A stretch of DNA of 5,943 nucleotides from a virus (IMGVR_UViG_2713897140_000009:1-5943); one strand, 5' to 3'; numbered from the stretch's first letter, positions 409-5,943 are shown. Numbers and translations are program-made. Notes: a model not told the origin generated them from the sequence alone.

Positions 409-626
409 CCAGCGTGATTGGTTGCTGGTGGGCTGCATCACCATCATGGTGATGATGCAGTGAATGTAAGGATTACTTAGGTTAGGGGCGTAACTCATTG
501 TCATTTTTTGAGCAGACCGGGAATCTCCGGTTTGGTTACTCTGTAACCAAGTCAATTTTATTTACTCTGTTGTGAGGGACTATAAGTTCTGCGCAAATTT
601 CCCCGGTTTCCTCAAATTGAGTTTCT

Positions 627-762
627 CGAAAATATCAGCGGGTTAGCGATTAAGCTGGCGAGTAATTAAACTGCGAAAATTTCGTAGTTTGTGACTATCT
701 GAAAGATAGTCGGTTGTTCCGACCTCAGCCATTGGCGGTCTCCGAAAATATCAACGGGTTAG
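627..762. repeat. Direct repeat pair CGAAAATATCA(G/A)CGGGTTAG (627-645 and 743-762), each containing an IHF-consensus-like core
   Basis: Two 19/20-nt matching copies 116 bp apart. Copy 2 contains TATCAACGGGTTA, matching the IHF consensus WATCAANNNNTTR exactly; copy 1 has one mismatch. Confidence 0.45.
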
Positions 763-768
763 GCCATC

Positions 769-808
769 GTGCAAATTTGCACTCTGCCAGCCAACGCAAT
801 TTTGCGTT
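769..808. promoter_or_regulatory. Two adjacent perfect palindromes with a shared core: GTGCAAATTTGCAC (769-782) and AACGCAATTTTGCGTT (793-808); candidate tandem operator
   Basis: Perfect 14-bp and 16-bp palindromes, centres about 25 bp apart, sharing a GCAA-(A/T-tract)-TTGC core. Two perfect palindromes of this length so close together are unlikely by chance. The binding protein is unknown. Confidence 0.4.
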
Positions 809-1027
809 ATCAGTCCTCAGATTTGAGGGATGTAGCCAGCTTTTCCCCCAATAGGGGGATTATCCAGTTACCGACGGTTTAACCGTCTGTGCCAGCACAA
901 CGAAAGAATTTGCGGGTAGCTTTAAACTACTTACAACATCCAATCTTACAGGCCGTGCCTTTCTAACTTTTTGCAATGTAATAAGTCAGGTAGCGCTATG
1001 CGTTCCACCGTGTACACCGCGTTCCGT

Positions 1028-1052
1028 AAAAACCACAGATTCGTGGTTTTCC
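1028..1052 (-). terminator. Terminator-like hairpin immediately after the Nu1-like ORF
   Basis: Stem AAAACCAC/GTGGTTTT with a 6-nt loop, located 15 nt past the stop at 1067-1069; the U-tract is partly inside the stem, so efficiency is uncertain. Confidence 0.35.
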
Positions 1053-1066
1053 TGAATATCATGAAT

Positions 1067-1451
1067 CTACCGCCGCAACCGTTCCGGCTTCTTCCACTGG
1101 TAAGTATTTTTCATGCTCTCCCTCCGTTGTTGAGAACGGCGACGGTATGCCAGCAACTCAAGGACTCTGGTTCGTATGTTGCGCATATCCACGCCGTTAA
1201 GCTCAATACCGTCACGGCGCATAACCTCAGCAACAACACGCGCATAGTTTTCGGCTGTCACGCTGTCCGGCTGCGTGGCCACCTGTTTGCCTGTTGCCTG
1301 ACTGATTCCGGTAATACGGCGGATTACTTTCAGTAGTTCGGCGTCGGTCATGGTTATGGTCTCCATAGTGATGGGGGAACAATTTCTGTAATCTGCGAAG
1401 CTGGCGATCGGTCAGACTCAAATGCCTGGCAACTTCAGTCTGAGTAGCCAC
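1067..1451 (-). CDS. Nu1-like (small terminase / Rpp-like) HTH protein, apparently frameshifted; would be 127 aa if the C5 run at 1373-1377 were C4
   Basis: GTG start at 1451 preceded by GAGGTG at a 5-6 nt spacing. N-terminus VATQTEVARHLSLTDRQLRRLQKL resembles the Nu1 winged-HTH (MEVNKKQLADIFGASIRTIQNWQ) and sits about 210 nt past cosN, as Nu1 does in lambda. That frame degenerates into low-complexity sequence after about 28 codons, while a protein-like reading frame (track ORF 1067..1366) continues in a different frame. A 1-nt change in the C5 homopolymer joins them. Confidence 0.5.
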
Positions 1452-1526
1452 TGTTCACCTCGCCAAAAAATCTCCCCTCATGCGTTTTAAACATGCATCT
1501 TGCGAACAACTTTATGAAACGCGGCA

Positions 1527-1706
1527 TATATGTCCGGTTTGAGTGTTCAATTTTTGCGCATGTCCGGTTCACGGAAAGTGAATTTTTATATTTTTCAAAT
1601 AGTTAACTCCCAGAAAAACCGGACATGGTTTCCGAAAAATTTTCATAAATAGTGAAATTCTGCGCCGCTCCCGCCCCGTAACGGGTCCATATGCCGGAAA
1701 GGACCC
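1527..1706 (-). other. Lambda-type cos site: cosQ (1694-1706), cosN region (1662-1680), conserved cosN-proximal block (1633-1656), and three ATGTCCGGTT repeats in R-site positions (1530-1539, 1560-1569; inverted copy 1617-1626)
   Basis: Minus strand reads ACGGGTCCTTTCCGG-N14-ACGGGGCGGGAGCGGCGCAGAATTTCACTATTTATGAAAATTTTTCGG, against my recall of lambda ACGGGTCCTTTCCGG-N14-ACGGGGCGGCGACCTCGCGGGTTTTCGCTATTTATGAAAATTTTCCGG. cosQ and the cosQ-cosN spacing are identical; the 12-nt cohesive-end position reads GGGCGGGAGCGG versus lambda GGGCGGCGACCT. The three 10-bp repeats (two direct, one inverted, with an AT-rich spacer) occupy the place of lambda R3/R2/R1 but differ in sequence. Confidence 0.6.
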
Positions 1707-1708
1707 GT

Positions 1709-1731
1709 AAAAAAAGCCGGATTTCTCCGGC
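1709..1731 (-). terminator. Rho-independent terminator of the capsid cassette
   Basis: Minus strand GCCGGAGAAATCCGGC followed by TTTTTTT, starting 5 nt past the stop of the 137-aa ORF. Confidence 0.65.
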
Positions 1732-1736
1732 CTGTC

Positions 1737-2150
1737 TCAGATGGTTTTCAGTATGCGATCGATGTCGCCGTCATCGCCCGGGTTTCTGCCATCGTATGCC
1801 ATGCCAGCTGATACGGCTTTCGGGCTGTGTATGTCCATAAAGTTTTCAAAGGCTGCGGTAAGCTCTGGTGCAACCTTCTGGCGTTCCTGCTCTATGGTCA
1901 TGCTAAGAATGCTTTTAGCCGTACCAACATCGATACAAGGCACGTTTGCCATTGCACGTAACAGCGGCTGATAGTCGCCAGATTCATCAAGCGCCATAAT
2001 CGCATCAGCGCGCGGCTTGTCCTGCTCTTCCAGTTTGTTAAGTTGATATATGGCCTCGTAGGTTGATAACCCTCTGTCAGCCATTGCCCGCGCTTCGGCT
2101 TTAAATTTACTCGCCAGCGGTAGCGCCATGATGCTTTCATTCGTTGCCAT
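1737..2150 (-). CDS. Hypothetical 137-aa protein, last gene of the capsid cassette
   Basis: ATG at 2150 with AGGGGGAA 4-5 nt upstream, starting 13 nt after the gpD-like stop, followed by a terminator. Protein-like composition; I do not recognise the family. Its position and size are similar to lambda FI, but no sequence similarity is seen. Confidence 0.6.
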   Translation of the reverse strand: MATNESIMALPLASKFKAEARAMADRGLSTYEAIYQLNKLEEQDKPRADAIMALDESGDYQPLLRAMANVPCIDVGTAKSILSMTIEQERQKVAPELTAAFENFMDIHSPKAVSAGMAYDGRNPGDDGDIDRILKTI

Positions 2151-2162
2151 CGTTCCCCCTGC

Positions 2163-2498
2163 TTATCGGGCCAGCGGCTGAACGGATACGCCAGAACCCG
2201 TAAAGGCGGCGCATTTTTTCGCATCGGTGTCGACGCTCTCAGGCCAGTTAACGGCGGCAATATTGAATATCCCCGTCTTGTAACACTGTGCTGATTTCTG
2301 CTTTGACGTGTCCACGGGGTACGCCGTCAGATAAACAGCCTTGCCAGATTCCTGACCATCCCACGCCTTAAACTCGCCATTGTCCGCCAGCATCAGCGGG
2401 GTAAATTCCTGAATAACGCCAGCATCAGCGGCAAAATGTACCAGCGTCGTGGCGACCTGCTGACTGCCTGCAAATAACTCAACATATGGAGTGCCCAT
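2163..2498 (-). CDS. Head decoration protein, lambda gpD-like (111 aa)
   Basis: TPLMLADNGEFKAWDG, YKTGIFNIAAVNWPE and KKCAAFTGSGVSV align with lambda gpD TPLMLDTSSRKLVAWDG, YKSGTFRYEDVLWPE and KKRTAFAGTAISIV. Same length class; GGGAGA Shine-Dalgarno 6 nt upstream of the ATG. Confidence 0.85.
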   Translation of the reverse strand: MGTPYVELFAGSQQVATTLVHFAADAGVIQEFTPLMLADNGEFKAWDGQESGKAVYLTAYPVDTSKQKSAQCYKTGIFNIAAVNWPESVDTDAKKCAAFTGSGVSVQPLAR

Positions 2499-2509
2499 AG
2501 AATCTCCCG

Positions 2510-3565
2510 TTAACCAATTTTGACGGTAACAAATTTGCGAATATCTGCCGGAACCGGCTGCGGTGCGCTGTGCGTCTGCACGTACTCAATCGCCGGATCG
2601 CCGTCCTCAATCCAGTTTTTCGGGTAAAACATGTTTTGCGTTGCGCCCGTTCTTACTGCGTCCTGATCCATAATCGCACCATAGGCCACCAGCCCTTTAT
2701 TGTTGGTGTTGCCCAGGACAAGCAAATCAGGCTCAAGGAAATATTTTTCGGTGCCGTCGCTGTCGGCGTATTTGCCGGAATAGACGATAAGGGCAATATC
2801 GCCCAGATAGCCTTTAAAGCTCACCACTTCGCCCAGGTTTTTACACGCCAGCTCTGCGGCGGATTCTGAACCACGGGAAAGATCGTACAGCTCGCGGAAT
2901 TTTTTAAAGCTGCGTAACGTTCGCCATACCTCAGCGCCCATAATCATGACGTTGGCGGGGCAGCTGGCCTGTTCGGCGTATAGCTCGATGTCATCTGTCG
3001 GATCATGCGTCTCTTTATTCTGCTCAGACCATTTTTTTCCTGGCCCCTGATGGACAATGCAGTTTGCCGGCATATTCCAGTCGATTTCATAGCGTTCTAT
3101 GCCTTCGCCTTCAATGATGTTTTTTCCGGTCGTGACCGCATTCACTGCCAGCCATTCCACACGCGCTTTAATGGCGTTTATCTGGCGGCGCATGTTGCCA
3201 GTAATGAGGCGCATACGTCGCCAGGTGGGGTCGTTAAGCTGTGCCGGATCTTCTCCAGCCATGCGCATAATGGTTTTTGATGGATCGATTTCGTGCTTTG
3301 GCTTCATGTAGCCGGGGCGGATAGTGCTTGTTTCGTACCCTTTATCGCGCTGAACCTGGCTACCCACCATAGGCGAACAAAACGCCGACATGGTGACTTC
3401 TTCAATATCCAGGGTATCCAGCATGATGTCCTGCGTGTTGAAGGTCGCCACGTTCGGAAAAAACAGCGACGTAAACAGCGGACTGAATCTAAAATCCGGA
3501 ACATCCTGCCGATTCAGGTACGCGAAAAGCTGGTTAGTGTTAAGAGCCGTTGCTTTACCTGCCAT
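2510..3565 (-). CDS. Major capsid protein, lambda gpE-like (351 aa)
   Basis: Multiple co-linear blocks shared with lambda gpE: FRFSPLFTSLFF vs FKFDPLFLRLFF; PGYMKPKHEIDP vs PGYVKPKHEVNP; DPTDDIELYA vs DPTDDIEAYA; YPKNWIEDGDPA vs YPKNWVTTGDPA; similar length (351 vs 341 aa). Confidence 0.92.
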   Translation of the reverse strand: MAGKATALNTNQLFAYLNRQDVPDFRFSPLFTSLFFPNVATFNTQDIMLDTLDIEEVTMSAFCSPMVGSQVQRDKGYETSTIRPGYMKPKHEIDPSKTIMRMAGEDPAQLNDPTWRRMRLITGNMRRQINAIKARVEWLAVNAVTTGKNIIEGEGIERYEIDWNMPANCIVHQGPGKKWSEQNKETHDPTDDIELYAEQASCPANVMIMGAEVWRTLRSFKKFRELYDLSRGSESAAELACKNLGEVVSFKGYLGDIALIVYSGKYADSDGTEKYFLEPDLLVLGNTNNKGLVAYGAIMDQDAVRTGATQNMFYPKNWIEDGDPAIEYVQTHSAPQPVPADIRKFVTVKIG

Positions 3566-3771
3566 TATTCACCCCCGTGAACCTGATTCATGCCCAACGC
3601 CGCACGTAAATAGGCGCGCACCTGCCAGCCTGTTGACGGCTCAACCATTGCCAGCGGATCAAGTCCTGCCGCAATGCTCGCTTTTACGTTCTGCTGGTGG
3701 CGTTCCTTGAGTGCCTCCACGATGTCGGGGCTTATGTAGACTGTAACCCCACCTTTTTTCTCTTCTGCCAT
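3565..3771 (-). CDS. Small hypothetical protein (68 aa from the ATG at 3771; track ORF extends to 3804), translationally coupled to the capsid gene
   Basis: The ATG at 3771 has AAGAGGAA about 9 nt upstream, whereas the upstream ATG at 3804 has no Shine-Dalgarno. Its TAA stop overlaps the gpE-like ATG (TAATG). Family not recognised. Confidence 0.5.
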   Translation of the reverse strand: MAEEKKGGVTVYISPDIVEALKERHQQNVKASIAAGLDPLAMVEPSTGWQVRAYLRAALGMNQVHGGE

Positions 3772-3804
3772 AGTCAGAAATTCCTCTTTGACGTTAAAAA
3801 TCAT

Positions 3805-3855
3805 AACTGGATGTTCATCCAGTTATGATTATAATCATGATTTCATATTTCGCAA
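3805..3855 (-). promoter_or_regulatory. Candidate sigma70 promoter of the capsid cassette (-35 TTGCGA at 3850-3855, 16-nt spacer, -10 TATAAT at 3828-3833) overlapping two dyad operators
   Basis: A perfect TATAAT lies inside the perfect 14-bp palindrome ATGATTATAATCAT (3825-3838). Immediately downstream is the dyad AACTGGATG-N2-CATCCAGTT (3805-3824). Prediction by eye only. Confidence 0.35.
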
Positions 3856-3930
3856 TAATATCGATCCATGTTGCAAATTATGAAATGATTTCCGGAAACA
3901 GTAGTCACCATGCTGTTAACCTCATATATG

Positions 3931-3974
3931 AAAAAGCCCGCTAAGTTTGCCTCCTGTACTTATCGGGCTTTTTT
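3931..3974. terminator. Bidirectional terminator-like hairpin (A5 - interrupted 10-bp stem - T6)
   Basis: AAAAAGCCCGCTAAGT...ACTTATCGGGCTTTTTT: stem flanked by an A-run on one side and a T-run on the other, so it could terminate on either strand. Confidence 0.35.
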
Positions 3975-4020
3975 ATCTGCCTGCAAAGGTGTCGAACAAA
4001 AAAACAATCAAAATCGACAC

Positions 4021-4064
4021 CATAAAAATAAAACCACTGTAATATCAATCCATTACAGTAGTGG
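4021..4064 (-). terminator. Terminator-like hairpin (second in tandem after the SSB gene)
   Basis: 8-bp stem ACTGTAAT/ATTACAGT (4036-4043/4052-4059) with an 8-nt loop; on the minus strand it is followed by TTTTATTTTTAT. Confidence 0.35.
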
Positions 4065-4101
4065 TGATGACGAATGAAATTTCAAAAACTAGCCTTTTTC
4101 C

Positions 4102-4145
4102 GCGCCGCTCCCGCCCCGTGGCAGGTCACTACACCGGGAGGACCC
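4102..4145 (-). other. Second cosQ/cosN-like segment, lacking the ATGTCCGGTT R-repeats
   Basis: The 18-mer GCGCCGCTCCCGCCCCGT (4102-4119) is identical to 1662-1679. It is followed after the same 14-nt spacing by a slightly degenerate cosQ (minus strand GGGTCCTCCCGG, 4134-4145). The surrounding ~75 bp is about 80% identical to 1660-1735. Confidence 0.45.
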
Positions 4146-4147
4146 AT

Positions 4148-4169
4148 AAAAAAGCCGGATTGCTCCGGC
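4148..4169 (-). terminator. Rho-independent terminator after the SSB gene
   Basis: Minus strand GCCGGAGCAATCCGGC followed by TTTTTT; a paralog of the terminator at 1709-1731. Confidence 0.6.
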
Positions 4170-4185
4170 TTCTGTTACTCGTTGC

Positions 4186-4608
4186 TTAAAACGGTATGTT
4201 ATCCCCGTACGGATCATCATTTCCCGCCTGTTGTTTTGCTCTGCTCAGTGCATCAGCAGCCTGCCCCTGTTGGCCTTTTTTGCCGCCCGGTCGCGCCGTT
4301 CTCGCACTGATTACGCTGTCTGCGATAACCTGCCAGCCCTGCCGCATTTCCCCGTTCTGTCCGGTCCACTGGCTCACCTGCATGTTACCCGCCACGCTCA
4401 GGGGTTCACCCTTGCGGTGCTTTGCCAGTGCTTCGGCCTGTCTGCCAAACGCCAGGACGGATAACCACATCGTCGCCGTTCCGTCATCGGCCTGGCTGCA
4501 CGGCAGGGGAACCGCCATACTCGCCATCGCCATTTGTGTCCCTTTGCTGGTGGTCTTTAACTGCGGGTCAGCCACCAGCCGCCCGTAAGCTGCTATCTGT
4601 GCTGTCAT
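4186..4608 (-). CDS. ssb: Single-stranded DNA-binding protein (SSB-like, 140 aa) with a C-terminal acidic IPF tail
   Basis: FGRQAEALAKHRKGEPLSVAGNMQVSQWTGQNGEMRQGWQVIA aligns with E. coli SSB [43 protein letters not shown]. Gly/Gln-rich linker and C-terminal DDPYGDNIPF (E. coli DDDIPF). Its ATG overlaps the upstream stop (ATGA). Confidence 0.75.
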   Translation of the reverse strand: MTAQIAAYGRLVADPQLKTTSKGTQMAMASMAVPLPCSQADDGTATMWLSVLAFGRQAEALAKHRKGEPLSVAGNMQVSQWTGQNGEMRQGWQVIADSVISARTARPGGKKGQQGQAADALSRAKQQAGNDDPYGDNIPF

Positions 4609-4862
4609 GCTGTCTGCTCTCCGGTTTTAACGTTGATGGTTGTCACCTGTTCCGCTTCGGCAATCTCCCGTTCTGTCAGCGTGGCAAAGTTTGCTGCCGC
4701 CGTGGTCATGAATGCGCTTATCAGTTCAGGATGTGCTTTCGCGTATCCTTCTCCCGCGTTGCGGTCGATGATTTTTATCGCCACCCTCAGCCAGTGCTCT
4801 GTAAGGTCAATGGCGCGGTTATGTTGCTTCTTCTGATTGTTAAGTTTTCCTGATGTGTGCAT
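4605..4862 (-). CDS. Hypothetical 85-aa protein between the origin and the SSB gene
   Basis: ATG at 4862 with GAGGGGGG about 11 nt upstream; stop overlaps the SSB start (ATGA), suggesting translational coupling. Family not recognised. Confidence 0.5.
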   Translation of the reverse strand: MHTSGKLNNQKKQHNRAIDLTEHWLRVAIKIIDRNAGEGYAKAHPELISAFMTTAAANFATLTEREIAEAEQVTTINVKTGEQTA

Positions 4863-4911
4863 TTTTGTTTTTACCCCCCTCGTTTAAAAAGTTTTGGAGA
4901 TACCCCCACCT

Positions 4912-5138
4912 TGTCTACCTTATCTACCTGGTGGATGCTCAGGCCAGTAATGACGCGGGTTTTATGGTGGTAGACAGTAAAAAATCTCTGTCTACCTGAT
5001 GTCTACCCATCCCTCCGACTGGCTACAAAAACAGGTAGACAAGGTAGACAGCTTGTAGACAGTAAAAAAAAGCTGTCTACCTAAATTAATACACTGAATT
5101 AAAACAACTTTTATGTAATCAGGTAGACAAGGTAGACA
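4912..5138. repeat. Iteron-type replication origin: 11 copies of the 8-bp iteron GGTAGACA/TGTCTACC in both orientations, interspersed with A-tracts
   Basis: TGTCTACC at 4912, 4989, 5000, 5074 and a variant at 4921; GGTAGACA at 4969, 5034, 5043, 5122, 5131 and a variant at 5055. Tandem pairs have a 9-bp period. AGGTAGACAAGGTAGACAG occurs twice (5032-5050, 5120-5138). A-rich tracts at 4976-4984 and 5062-5070 could act as an unwinding element. Lies directly downstream of the rep ORF. Confidence 0.65.
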
Positions 5139-5152
5139 GCAATTGCCAAAAA

Positions 5153-5878
5153 TTATAAAAACGCGTCGCAATCGTCGGTTGTTATTGCGTTAGTCTGCGT
5201 CACTCCATTAATTTTTCGCGTAATATATTCATGTCCGTAAACTTTTGCGGCTGGCTTCATGGCCTTGCCAAAGTCATTTACGTTTAGTGGTTTGGTTCTG
5301 CCTGCGTATGCCATAAACGCCAGATAGACGCGGTAAAGGCTGTTTCTGGTCGTGTACTTCACGGAATCGCCACCGCCACCCATCATCAGGCCACGTGCTT
5401 CCTCCAGAAAATTCAGGAACTGGCAAAACTCAATAACCGGATCCGTTTGCTGCTTTATCGCCAGTGCTTCATCACCGTCACGCTGTTCCAGTAGTAAAGC
5501 CCGCGCCTTTTCAGGGTCTGCAAAGTTCGCCAGTAATCGGCGGATAATGACGGGGATTTCAGCCGCAATCTTTTCCGGTAGTTCCCTGTCTTTTTCGGCC
5601 TCGTTGACGATATTGTCGAAACGGAAAATCACGCGACGACGTGCCACGCCTCCGGCCCGTTCGGTGAATATCATCGGATTGTTATTGGTTGCCAGCACCA
5701 CCGCCCTGATTACCGCCGTAAAACGCTTTTCATATTTCGGGTTAATTTCCACGGGGTCGCCGCCCGTGATTTTCTTGATGCCCGTTCCTTCGCCTGTATA
5801 TTTCGGCTGGTCTGCCAGGACGATAAGACGACTCCCGACAACCTGTGCACGCCCACCAGCATCATCAAGCGATGTCAT
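5153..5878 (-). CDS. Replication protein resembling the C-terminal region of P4-family (D5-like) primase/SF3 helicases; no Walker A in this ORF
   Basis: GSRLIVLADQ (Walker-B-like region), KKITGGDPV, VVLATNNNP (SF3 motif-C-like TNNxP), RRRVIFRFDN and ELPEKIAAEIPVII match the conserved post-Walker-A pattern of P4 alpha-type proteins as I recall it. No GxxxxGK[ST] motif is present. The ATG overlaps the stop of the upstream ORF (ATGA). Confidence 0.6.
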   Translation of the reverse strand: MTSLDDAGGRAQVVGSRLIVLADQPKYTGEGTGIKKITGGDPVEINPKYEKRFTAVIRAVVLATNNNPMIFTERAGGVARRRVIFRFDNIVNEAEKDRELPEKIAAEIPVIIRRLLANFADPEKARALLLEQRDGDEALAIKQQTDPVIEFCQFLNFLEEARGLMMGGGGDSVKYTTRNSLYRVYLAFMAYAGRTKPLNVNDFGKAMKPAAKVYGHEYITRKINGVTQTNAITTDDCDAFL

Positions 5879-5943
5879 CTCAGCGCTGATATGACTTTCC
5901 GTGTCAAACCGGAATCTCTAATTTTGACGATTTTCTTTTTAGG
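5875..5943 (-). CDS. 3' end of an upstream ORF continuing beyond the window (C-terminus ...PKKKIVKIRDSGLTRKVISALR)
   Basis: The only minus-strand frame open to the window edge; its TGA overlaps the rep ATG. Too short to identify. Confidence 0.3.
   Translation of the reverse strand, partial: PKKKIVKIRDSGLTRKVISALR

Follow-up and report, generated by a model that had tools for sequence, protein, structure and literature searches.

A short palindrome beside a binding site for integration host factor (IHF) is already known as a single site within the phage gene roi. The Roi protein reportedly binds inside its own gene next to an IHF site, with IHF stabilising the complex, in a 1996 paper by Clerget and Boccard (J Bacteriol 178:4077) whose title links Roi to IHF mutants. 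In the roi genes of HK022 and HK97, and likewise in those of the HK620 type, the palindrome lies ~10 bp upstream of a match to WATCAANNNNTTR, the established IHF consensus. Here we compare these sites with a non-coding region in a stretch of 5,943 nucleotides (IMGVR_UViG_2713897140_000009:1-5943), the whole of which we call the window. The window is 100% identical to Escherichia coli FDAARGOS_943 and represents the packaging (int-distal) end of a decayed capsid-forming phage-inducible chromosomal island (cf-PICI). An earlier sequence-only reading had noted two adjacent palindromes at 769-808 (palindromes 1 and 2) and taken them for tandem operators of one dimeric regulator. We find that they are not an isolated pair, but two of at least nine palindromes in a non-coding array, and that this array is a mosaic of modules that were copied from the palindrome and IHF stretch within roi and rha genes, or have been kept close to it. 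A module has a palindrome of 9-25 bp and, in most cases, a site for host IHF after it.

The array units carry the same palindrome variants as the roi genes, yet they differ from the known site in several respects. The roi site is a single copy in coding sequence of phages, whereas the array has two to seven tandem copies of mixed specificity, in non-coding DNA, in a satellite with no recognisable roi or rha gene among the open reading frames (ORFs) tested; its binding is, moreover, putative. Lying outside roi/rha coding sequence, the array is a derivative or mimic of the roi site and not the same element. A literature search turned up no account of non-coding tandem copies with mixed specificity in satellites, nor one of a rule by which roi/rha genes carry a compensated intragenic palindrome at a fixed position.

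Several other described systems resemble the array in part. The bacterial interspersed mosaic element BIME-1 (RIB/RIP) of E. coli is likewise a mosaic of short palindromes that includes an IHF site and lies downstream of an operon's last gene. The array, however, lacks the consensus of the repetitive extragenic palindrome (REP), its units all point the same way and do not alternate, it is confined to PICI ends and is not dispersed, and its units are homologous to phage roi/rha sites. If the array acts as a decoy, it would also be akin to datA, a cluster of DnaA boxes that needs IHF, and to the incA iterons of P1, all of these being promoter-free clusters of regulator sites, IHF-assisted, with an effect that scales with copy number. 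Unlike datA and incA, it would bind the proteins of another element, namely the helper phage, and would do so with several specificities at once. The cosB site of lambda, in which terminase R sites surround the IHF site I1, likewise places protein-binding repeats and an IHF bend near packaging genes. The array palindromes differ in that they are not terminase R sites and vary between units, and the probable cos of the island lies elsewhere, with a Nu1 match at 1380-1480, candidate R-like repeats at 1528-1630 and a cosN-like sequence at ~1660-1690; by our own reading of the last of these, we rejected the array as a cos candidate. Finally, the crr of P4 consists of two 120-bp repeats 4.5 kb from ori, and the island has a P4-like primase and two strongest array units that lie 116 bp apart, ~4.2 kb from its ori iterons. 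This analogy was set aside because the ori iteron (GTAGACA/TGTCTAC), present ten times at 4860-5150 between the primase gene and the next ORF, has no occurrence in 200-1066.

Results

Homology to sites inside phage roi genes

When the hairpin TTCCTCAAATTGAGGTTTCC was searched alone, with the IHF core left out, it was found in PICI arrays and also in many ~40-kb phage contigs, in which the sequence is coding. Together with GAAAGAATCAATAACTTAGG, it lies inside the roi gene of HK620, CUS-3, HK633, Kapi1 and Stx phages, and the HK620-type product (240 aa) carries the Pfam domains Phage_pRha and ANT/KilAC. More broadly, the roi genes of HK022, HK97, HK620, Stx and P1-like phages contain ~45-60 nt that are homologous to an array unit. 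In HK620-type roi the palindrome occupies gene nt 130-142 and is followed by the gene's only IHF consensus at nt 153-165 (CCTCAAATTGAGG and AATCAATAACTTA, respectively). HK022 and HK97 roi have the palindrome CTGCATTGCAG and then AATCAATGATTTA, which in HK022 comes 12 nt later and is the sole plus-strand IHF consensus in the 7 kb examined. By our own reading, ~43 nt are identical between one array unit (locus L078) and the HK620-type roi, with the array of locus L198 differing in the palindrome.

The units of the window itself match inside roi/ant genes at 81-89% over 35-42 nt. By blastn, 603-637 has counterparts within roi/anti-repressor genes, at 83% in HK620, CUS-3, H-19B and Stx phages and at 89% in Klebsiella phages; 729-763 corresponds to a Roi-like gene in Stx2a phages, and 713-754 to the ant gene in phage D6. 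At both 603-645 and 721-761 the layout is also that of roi, with a short palindrome directly 5' of an IHF consensus on the same strand. Another palindrome of the array, AAACTGCGAAAATTTCGTAGTT, is one mismatch away from a 21-bp perfect palindrome, AACTACGAAAATTTCGTAGTT, in a Roi-like (ANT-domain) gene of Salmonella phage ST65. A lenient blastn of 590-900 against 50,697 phage genomes gave weak matches in 63 records, nearly all of them in genes annotated as Roi, anti-repressor, KilA or DNA-binding protein, and in 4/4 genes examined the matches begin 114-135 nt after the start codon.

The same intragenic position recurs among 14 Roi homologues from enteric lambdoid phages, P1-like D6, Klebsiella, Pseudomonas and Psychrobacter phages, APSE-7 and Vibrio phage ICP1. 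The diversity of this set came from tblastn on the phage collection, the locus search with the Roi alignment having returned near-identical HK620-type genes only. A palindrome with arms of at least 5 bp is present at gene nt 124-148 in ten of the 14, an imperfect one in three, and none in the remaining one. The ten palindromes represent seven variants that arose by compensatory change altering the protein (LPQIEV, LPPMEV, LPPMGI, FPQTVEIE, PPALQH and others). Four roi variants are also array palindromes, namely CCTCAAATTGAGG, CCCCAATGGGG/CCCCCAATGGGG, TTTCCACAGxCTGTGGAAA and CTGCATTGCAG/CCTGCATTGCAG, and the enteric homologues have, in addition, an IHF consensus at gene nt 150-165. The Rha/Roi/Ant-type genes of distant phages may each hold a palindromic site, probably their operator, in coding sequence, just after the region encoding the helix-turn-helix. 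The Roi homologue of ICP1 (L389) carries its palindrome, CCCCAGTGGGG, at gene nt 131-141, the conserved intragenic position; ICP1 is the helper of PLE satellites.

Homology to phage coding sequence could also mean that the array is recombination debris, that is, non-functional roi/rha fragments gathered by illegitimate or homologous recombination and tandem duplication in a dispensable att-side region. The arrays are indeed mosaic, unit number and order are variable, and the copies in this decayed island are degenerate. We nevertheless consider such an origin unlikely. Although several roi/rha source variants are represented, only the ~45-60-nt segment of palindrome and IHF site is present, and flanking roi sequence never is. 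By tblastn, roi residues ~37-57 (KNGVIRLPQIEVSERINNLG) are the only part that resembles the arrays, and the array copies of it stand in different frames and contain stops, so that a module of ~50 nt, and not the whole gene, is common to the two; the array is therefore not a coherent roi pseudogene. Furthermore, the frames are scrambled, yet palindromy and IHF positions are kept in 66-90 distinct units (see below), and the array occupies the same position in four PICI lineages.

Anatomy of the repeated unit

For the analysis of the unit, 74 IMG/VR loci were collected by means of the repeated 18-mer; 51 loci of the whole collection have arrays, of two to seven units each, and these arrays gave 66-90 distinct units for motif and covariation analysis. 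A unit consists of a palindrome that varies between units, 4-5 nt, and then the conserved 18-mer GAAAATATCAACGGGTTA. Among 66 distinct units, A6, T7, C8 and A9 as well as T15, T16 and A17 of the 18-mer never change, only A or T is seen at position 5, and variation falls at positions 11-14, a pattern by which we identify the 18-mer as the IHF consensus. The sequence-only reading had overlooked this adjacent motif, which is the sequence-conserved element of the region. The array of EDL933 (NZ_CP008957.1, ~1694757-1695187) has six matches to the relaxed consensus WATCARNNNNTTR, all on one strand and within 400 bp, and the EDL933 locus as a whole has eight, against 0.6 expected per 10 kb. The window holds one strict match (749-761) and one relaxed match (633-645).

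The arms of the palindromes covary by compensatory change. At the arm pair -16/-8 the distinct units have TA (32), CG (24) or GC (18), and at -14/-10 they have AT (47) or CG (34). Overall, Watson-Crick pairing of the arms amounts to 78%; with the partner shifted by one base it is 42%, and with a shift of two bases 25%.

Compensatory change of this kind would also preserve hairpin potential, and the array might accordingly be a BIME-like 3'-end RNA element, in which hairpins in the 3' untranslated region of a late operon stabilise or process the mRNA as REP does, the IHF sites being incidental or architectural. BIME-1/RIB elements are reportedly palindromes with an IHF site at operon ends, in 1993 accounts attributed to Boccard and Prentki and to Oppenheim. 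In addition, the array of the HK97-type cf-PICI lies between the stop of the last ORF and a hairpin that we read as a bidirectional terminator. Even so, an RNA role strikes us as quite improbable. With G:T in 11 and A:C in 8 of 450 cells, there is no wobble excess on either strand, and neither strand is consistently favoured in folding energy. Relative to the genes upstream, the array runs antisense in cf-PICIs and in the inverted, sense orientation in classical PICIs; its build is independent of orientation. In the window, a terminator-like hairpin stands between the last ORF and the array. A search of Rfam at the E-value threshold gave no match in the array, the two matches in the window being chance hits to mir-374 at 3919-3987. 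Moreover, an RNA role would leave the identity with sites inside roi unexplained. The lack of a wobble signature, of an energy bias, of an Rfam match and of a promoter-like site (see below), together with the orientation flip between PICI types, argues for a DNA-level element, and a structured RNA was rejected on the wobble counts, the folding symmetry and the flip. All of this points to array palindromes that would serve as protein-binding sites in DNA and not as RNA hairpins.

Two further classes of element were considered and rejected. An integron attC or CRISPR-like array came to mind because a conserved motif alternates with variable hairpins; against it stand the lack of an inverse core site and of any cas or intI gene, and here it is the spacers that are palindromic and the repeats that are not. 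An origin for an HUH nuclease was suggested by TTGATATT within the motif, which the phiX174 origin also contains; we judged this a coincidence of 8 nt, and no Rep gene is present.

The array region of the window

Positions 590-900 contain nine palindromes (arm of at least 5, loop of at most 4), against 1.34 +/- 1.2 in dinucleotide shuffles, of which 0/1000 reach nine. This corresponds to 29 palindromes per kb, vs 4.7 per kb in the coding part (1100-5943). With arms of at least 7 and loops of at most 2, there are six in the whole window and 1.1 in dinucleotide shuffles. The region is non-coding, as had been claimed, with stops in all six frames of 603-887, and a 46-aa ORF at 714-854 has no Pfam match. 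The parts of the region are listed below in window coordinates, with the strand wherever one is assigned.

603-645, plus strand: array unit 1, a degenerate HK620/H-19B-type Roi palindrome (CTCAAATTGAG, 611-621) followed by an IHF-type motif
628-645, plus strand: IHF-type motif of unit 1, GAAAATATCAGCGGGTTA, in which TATCAGCGGGTTA (633-645) fits the relaxed consensus WATCARNNNNTTR
669-689 (core 671-687): palindrome AAACTGCGAAAATTTCGTAGTT, found by script
693-711: palindrome GACTATCTGAAAGATAGTC with 8-bp arms; no phage counterpart identified
721-761, plus strand: array unit 2, palindrome GCCATTGGC at 729-737 with the outer pair GACC/GGTC, followed by the 18-mer
744-761, plus strand: perfect consensus 18-mer of unit 2, GAAAATATCAACGGGTTA, with the strict IHF consensus TATCAACGGGTTA at 749-761
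769-782: palindrome 1, GTGCAAATTTGCAC; right outer arm TCTG (783-786) kept, left outer arm lost
788-808: palindrome 2, AACGCAATTTTGCGTT, with CAGCC (788-792) kept as its outer arm on the left; a degenerate version of CAGCCAACGCAATTTTGCGTTGGCTG (26 bp)
815-828: palindrome CCTCAGATTTGAGG, which belongs to a conserved module of other arrays, CCTCAGATGTGAGGGATGTAGCCAGC
844-873, plus strand: degenerate unit, in which the palindrome (TCCCCCAATAGGGGGA, 844-859) is of the Stx2a_14040 type plus one base and precedes the IHF-motif remnant TTATCCAGTTACCG
873-887: perfect 15-bp palindrome GACGGTTTAACCGTC, found by script
1028-1054, minus strand: hairpin and T run directly after the stop of the last PICI ORF, repeat family D2; putative terminator by eye
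1067-1351 (94 aa, as annotated) or 1067-1366 (99 aa, longest), minus strand: last PICI ORF, phrog_1561

The hairpin at 1028-1054 was not listed by a terminator scan; a near-copy of it at 307-333 was, on the plus strand at 313-326. The phrog_1561 ORF bears on the earlier statement that no regulator gene of at least 66 aa lies nearby, since it is 94-99 aa long and stands 260 bp to the right; the statement needs qualifying to that extent, although nothing in this ORF points to a regulator. Its family is annotated as of unknown function, it has no Pfam match, and its AlphaFold2 (AF2) model has a pLDDT of 61. It always adjoins the array in cf-PICIs and is missing from other array-bearing PICIs, and a contig scan of genomes with this ORF gave one locus only. 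Given the shallow alignment, the lack of a Pfam domain, the low pLDDT and its absence from some array-bearing PICIs, we set it aside as a candidate for the protein that binds the array.

Palindromes 1 and 2 and their counterparts in rha genes

Both palindromes had been described as perfect. Direct reading and a script bear this out for palindrome 1 (GTGCAAATTTGCAC, 14 bp) but not for palindrome 2 (AACGCAATTTTGCGTT, 793-808), in which 7-bp arms (AACGCAA/TTGCGTT) surround a central TT that is not complementary. The two do have a centre-to-centre spacing of 25 bp and a common core, GCAA(A/T)TTTGC, as had been noted.

Rha-family genes contain a 26-bp palindrome, CAGCCAACGCAATTTTGCGTTGGCTG, of which palindrome 2 represents the inner part. 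Canonical Phage_pRha genes have the 18-nt core of CAGCCAACGCAATTTTGCGTTGGCTG at gene nt 130-192, with arms around it that reach 9-13 bp in several of these genes and the full 26 bp in L105, and in the E. coli phages HK639, 2B8 and phiv205-1 the palindrome 2 core falls under the annotation 'Rha protein'. This core usually encodes SQRNFAL, with QRNFAL in L113, L120, L131, L112 and L118. In L158 (1160-1177) and L113 (5208-5225), the same palindrome (CCAGCGCAATTTTGCGCT and CCAACGCAATTTTGCGTT, respectively) occurs at the equivalent position and is read in different frames, giving PAQFCA vs QRNFAL, which argues that it is the DNA, and not the peptide, that is conserved. Of CAGCCAACGCAATTTTGCGTTGGCTG, the window has retained the left arm and the inner part of the right one, whereas L198, L078 and L096 keep the outer right arm (GCCAACG...CGTTGGC), and this difference in the arms retained explains the apparent 'shifted hairpin' in classical PICIs.

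Palindrome 1, for its part, is the inner portion of a 22-bp palindrome, CAGAGTGCAAATTTGCACTCTG. An imperfect version of CAGAGTGCAAATTTGCACTCTG lies at gene nt 130 of a Phage_pRha+ANT gene in low-GC phages (L081-type), and a perfect one is found in a prophage region, with a Bro-N/P22_AR_C antirepressor among the genes next to it. Palindrome 1 is less strongly linked to Rha genes than palindrome 2. In a separate case, the AntA-family antirepressor gene of the PICI L198 holds a 20-bp perfect palindrome of its own within the coding sequence (TTTCCCCAAATTTGGGGAAA, 714-733), and intragenic palindromes may be general in antirepressor-type genes beyond the Rha domain.

According to the sequence-only reading, the pair would be tandem operators at which one dimeric regulator, from the island or the host, controls a nearby promoter. 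The common core fits such a scheme, as does a spacing of 25 bp, which is ~2.4 helical turns, and some classical PICIs do encode AntA-family antirepressors with a palindrome in their own gene. The comparison between islands makes it very improbable, however. The two sites are 58 bp apart in the PICI of AVS0542, where an IHF unit stands between them, and palindrome 1 is absent from EDL933. Their extended forms, CAGAGTGCAAATTTGCACTCTG and CAGCCAACGCAATTTTGCGTTGGCTG, differ, and no second copy of either palindrome was found elsewhere in the islands. Sigma-70-like promoter sites number 0 in 1-1700, against 2.4 in shuffles, in a scan by consensus only. A Rha or ANT domain was found in 0/10 small or regulatory ORFs of the complete AVS0542 cf-PICI, which does have AlpA and PerC. 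Palindromes 1 and 2 are, in short, independent modules among at least nine different palindromes. The accompanying suggestion that the binding factor is encoded elsewhere in the element, or by the helper or host, fared better in its second half: Rha/Roi-family proteins of the helper and host IHF are the best candidates, but no Rha/ANT gene was recognised among the ten ORFs tested in the complete cf-PICI.

Island context and distribution

In the window the array sits in ~800 bp of non-coding DNA, with the host gene yejO on one side and the last ORF of the PICI on the other. The island genes, all on the minus strand, include those for the major capsid protein (MCP), decoration protein, head-tail connector, SSB and P4-like primase. 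The island shows several marks of decay (window 1227-1451, minus strand, and L001 19140-24901): only the ~23 first residues are left of the Nu1-like small terminase (TerS; phrog_57/7289), the integrase at the far end is split by IS21, and icd is frameshifted at this island.

Mosaic arrays of the same kind stand between the last gene and the att core in PICIs of four lineages, which are lambda-type cf-PICIs adjoining clpS, the HK97-type EcCIEDL933 adjoining phoQ, a type with MCP and TerS that lacks the phrog_1561 ORF, and classical PerC/AlpA PICIs. To the last of these belongs the 12,152-bp record L198 (NZ_CP148430.1), which was deposited as a non-mobilizable plasmid and is an excised circular PICI with genes for a TOPRIM/DUF927 primase, PerC, AntA and an integrase. 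Array segments occur in ~1,200/5,426 complete E. coli genomes, whereas the EDL933 array was not found in any phage genome at normal stringency, and the array appears to be specific to satellites.

The constant position next to att raises the question of whether the array is an accessory part of attP that builds the integrative or excisive intasome or controls int, which lies downstream in the circular form. The array is always on the int-distal side of att, the circular order is last gene, array, attP, int (in L198: perC, array, attP with GTGTACATAA arm repeats on its flanks, int), and IHF is a standard attP cofactor. Other features of the arrays leave us doubtful, to the point of regarding a part in attP as rather improbable. 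Arm-type repeats (CACGAACA in AVS0542, GTGTACATAA in L198) closely flank the core, while the array is on one side only, starts ~190-330 bp from the core or outermost arm repeat and reaches ~750 bp, a distance far larger than the size of attP sites. Its orientation relative to att flips between PICI types, and the same units are shared by PICIs that differ in integrase and att site. The att core of AVS0542, AAATTAACTACACCATT, and its arm repeats lie ~270 bp from the first array unit, and the array is therefore not a set of integrase arm sites.

Several other features of the window were observed. Two overlapping palindromes, one of 32 bp with 15-bp arms (AATCATAACTGGATGTTCATCCAGTTATGATT, 3799-3830) and one of 14 bp that is perfect (ATGATTATAATCAT, 3825-3838), occupy the start, or the sequence immediately upstream of the start, of the ORF (3565-3804) at the head of the capsid gene block; these are a more conventional candidate operator than the pair at 769-808. 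A cosN-like segment of ~75 bp (CGCGCCGCTCCCGCCCCG ... AAAAAGCCGGATTxCTCCGGC) is present twice, at 1660-1735 and 4095-4170, and 3989-4145, a segment that includes the larger part of the second copy, has a 94% match at the end of the mEp460 phage genome. Bases 1-62, which in this genome come directly after the yejO pseudogene, are identical to an IS4 end (insG region) in many E. coli genomes and lambda derivatives. A 32-nt direct repeat, GTATGGGAATCCCCATATCGGCATCATGCCCA, lies at 266-297 and 377-408. The same region has a hairpin (404-433) and a nearly perfect palindrome of 28 bp (433-460), and 284-413 recurs, unannotated, at 93-96% identity in many E. coli genomes. No tRNA or tmRNA was found in the window.

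Discussion

A key outcome of our analysis is that a non-coding array at the end of PICIs reproduces, in several variants, a module that phages carry inside roi and rha genes. On this basis, we favour, with slightly better than even confidence, the view that the array is a docking or decoy platform for antirepressor-like Roi/Rha proteins of the helper, with host IHF as cofactor. During lytic growth of the helper, Roi/Rha proteins of differing specificity would each bind the matching palindrome of the array, and IHF at the flanking site would bend the DNA and stabilise the complex, as it reportedly does for Roi at its own gene. The satellite would thus carry a multi-specific docking or titration platform for helper proteins, whose dosage would rise as the island replicates. 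Of two possible uses, a decoy that titrates Roi-type proteins and a sensor by which island functions are triggered, we lean towards the first.

It is tempting to speculate further that the array offers one variant for each of several helper families, and that it titrates or reads an early function of the helper. We advance this multi-specific version more tentatively, at somewhat less than even confidence. The families concerned would be HK022/HK97, HK620/Stx, the P1-like D6, and Salmonella and Klebsiella phages.

A number of observations weigh against our preferred view of the array as a docking or decoy platform. The IHF-motif statistics carry an ascertainment bias, the units having been gathered by similarity to that motif; samples anchored on the hairpin lessen this bias, with the consensus kept in ~19/20 contexts by our own count, although degenerate copies of the motif do occur. 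Beside palindromes 1 and 2 of the window there is no strict IHF consensus, and what follows palindrome 2 is a degraded motif, TTATCAGTCC. Palindrome 1 is tied to Rha genes by a few loci from an exact-pattern search, and the palindrome in QRNFAL-type Rha genes could in part reflect a conserved peptide motif. Finally, with terS truncated, int split and icd frameshifted, the array of this particular island may be non-functional.

Helper induction turns on alpA in Gram-negative PICIs, and the literature that describes this names no helper factor; how these islands perceive or manipulate their helpers is largely undescribed. If our view of a docking or decoy platform is true, a DNA array that mimics the binding site of a helper regulator would be a new satellite-helper interface, one that is based on DNA and not on protein and that is multi-specific, and such multi-specificity would fit the broad helper range of cf-PICIs. 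In practical terms, the pattern of 18-mer and palindrome is a marker of PICI ends in enterobacterial genomes. For the phages, Roi/Rha proteins, which are very common and carry only generic annotation in the phage records examined here, would gain a concrete family of DNA targets, and the intragenic palindrome would constrain and co-vary with the Roi/Rha protein sequence, thereby shaping the evolution of these proteins.

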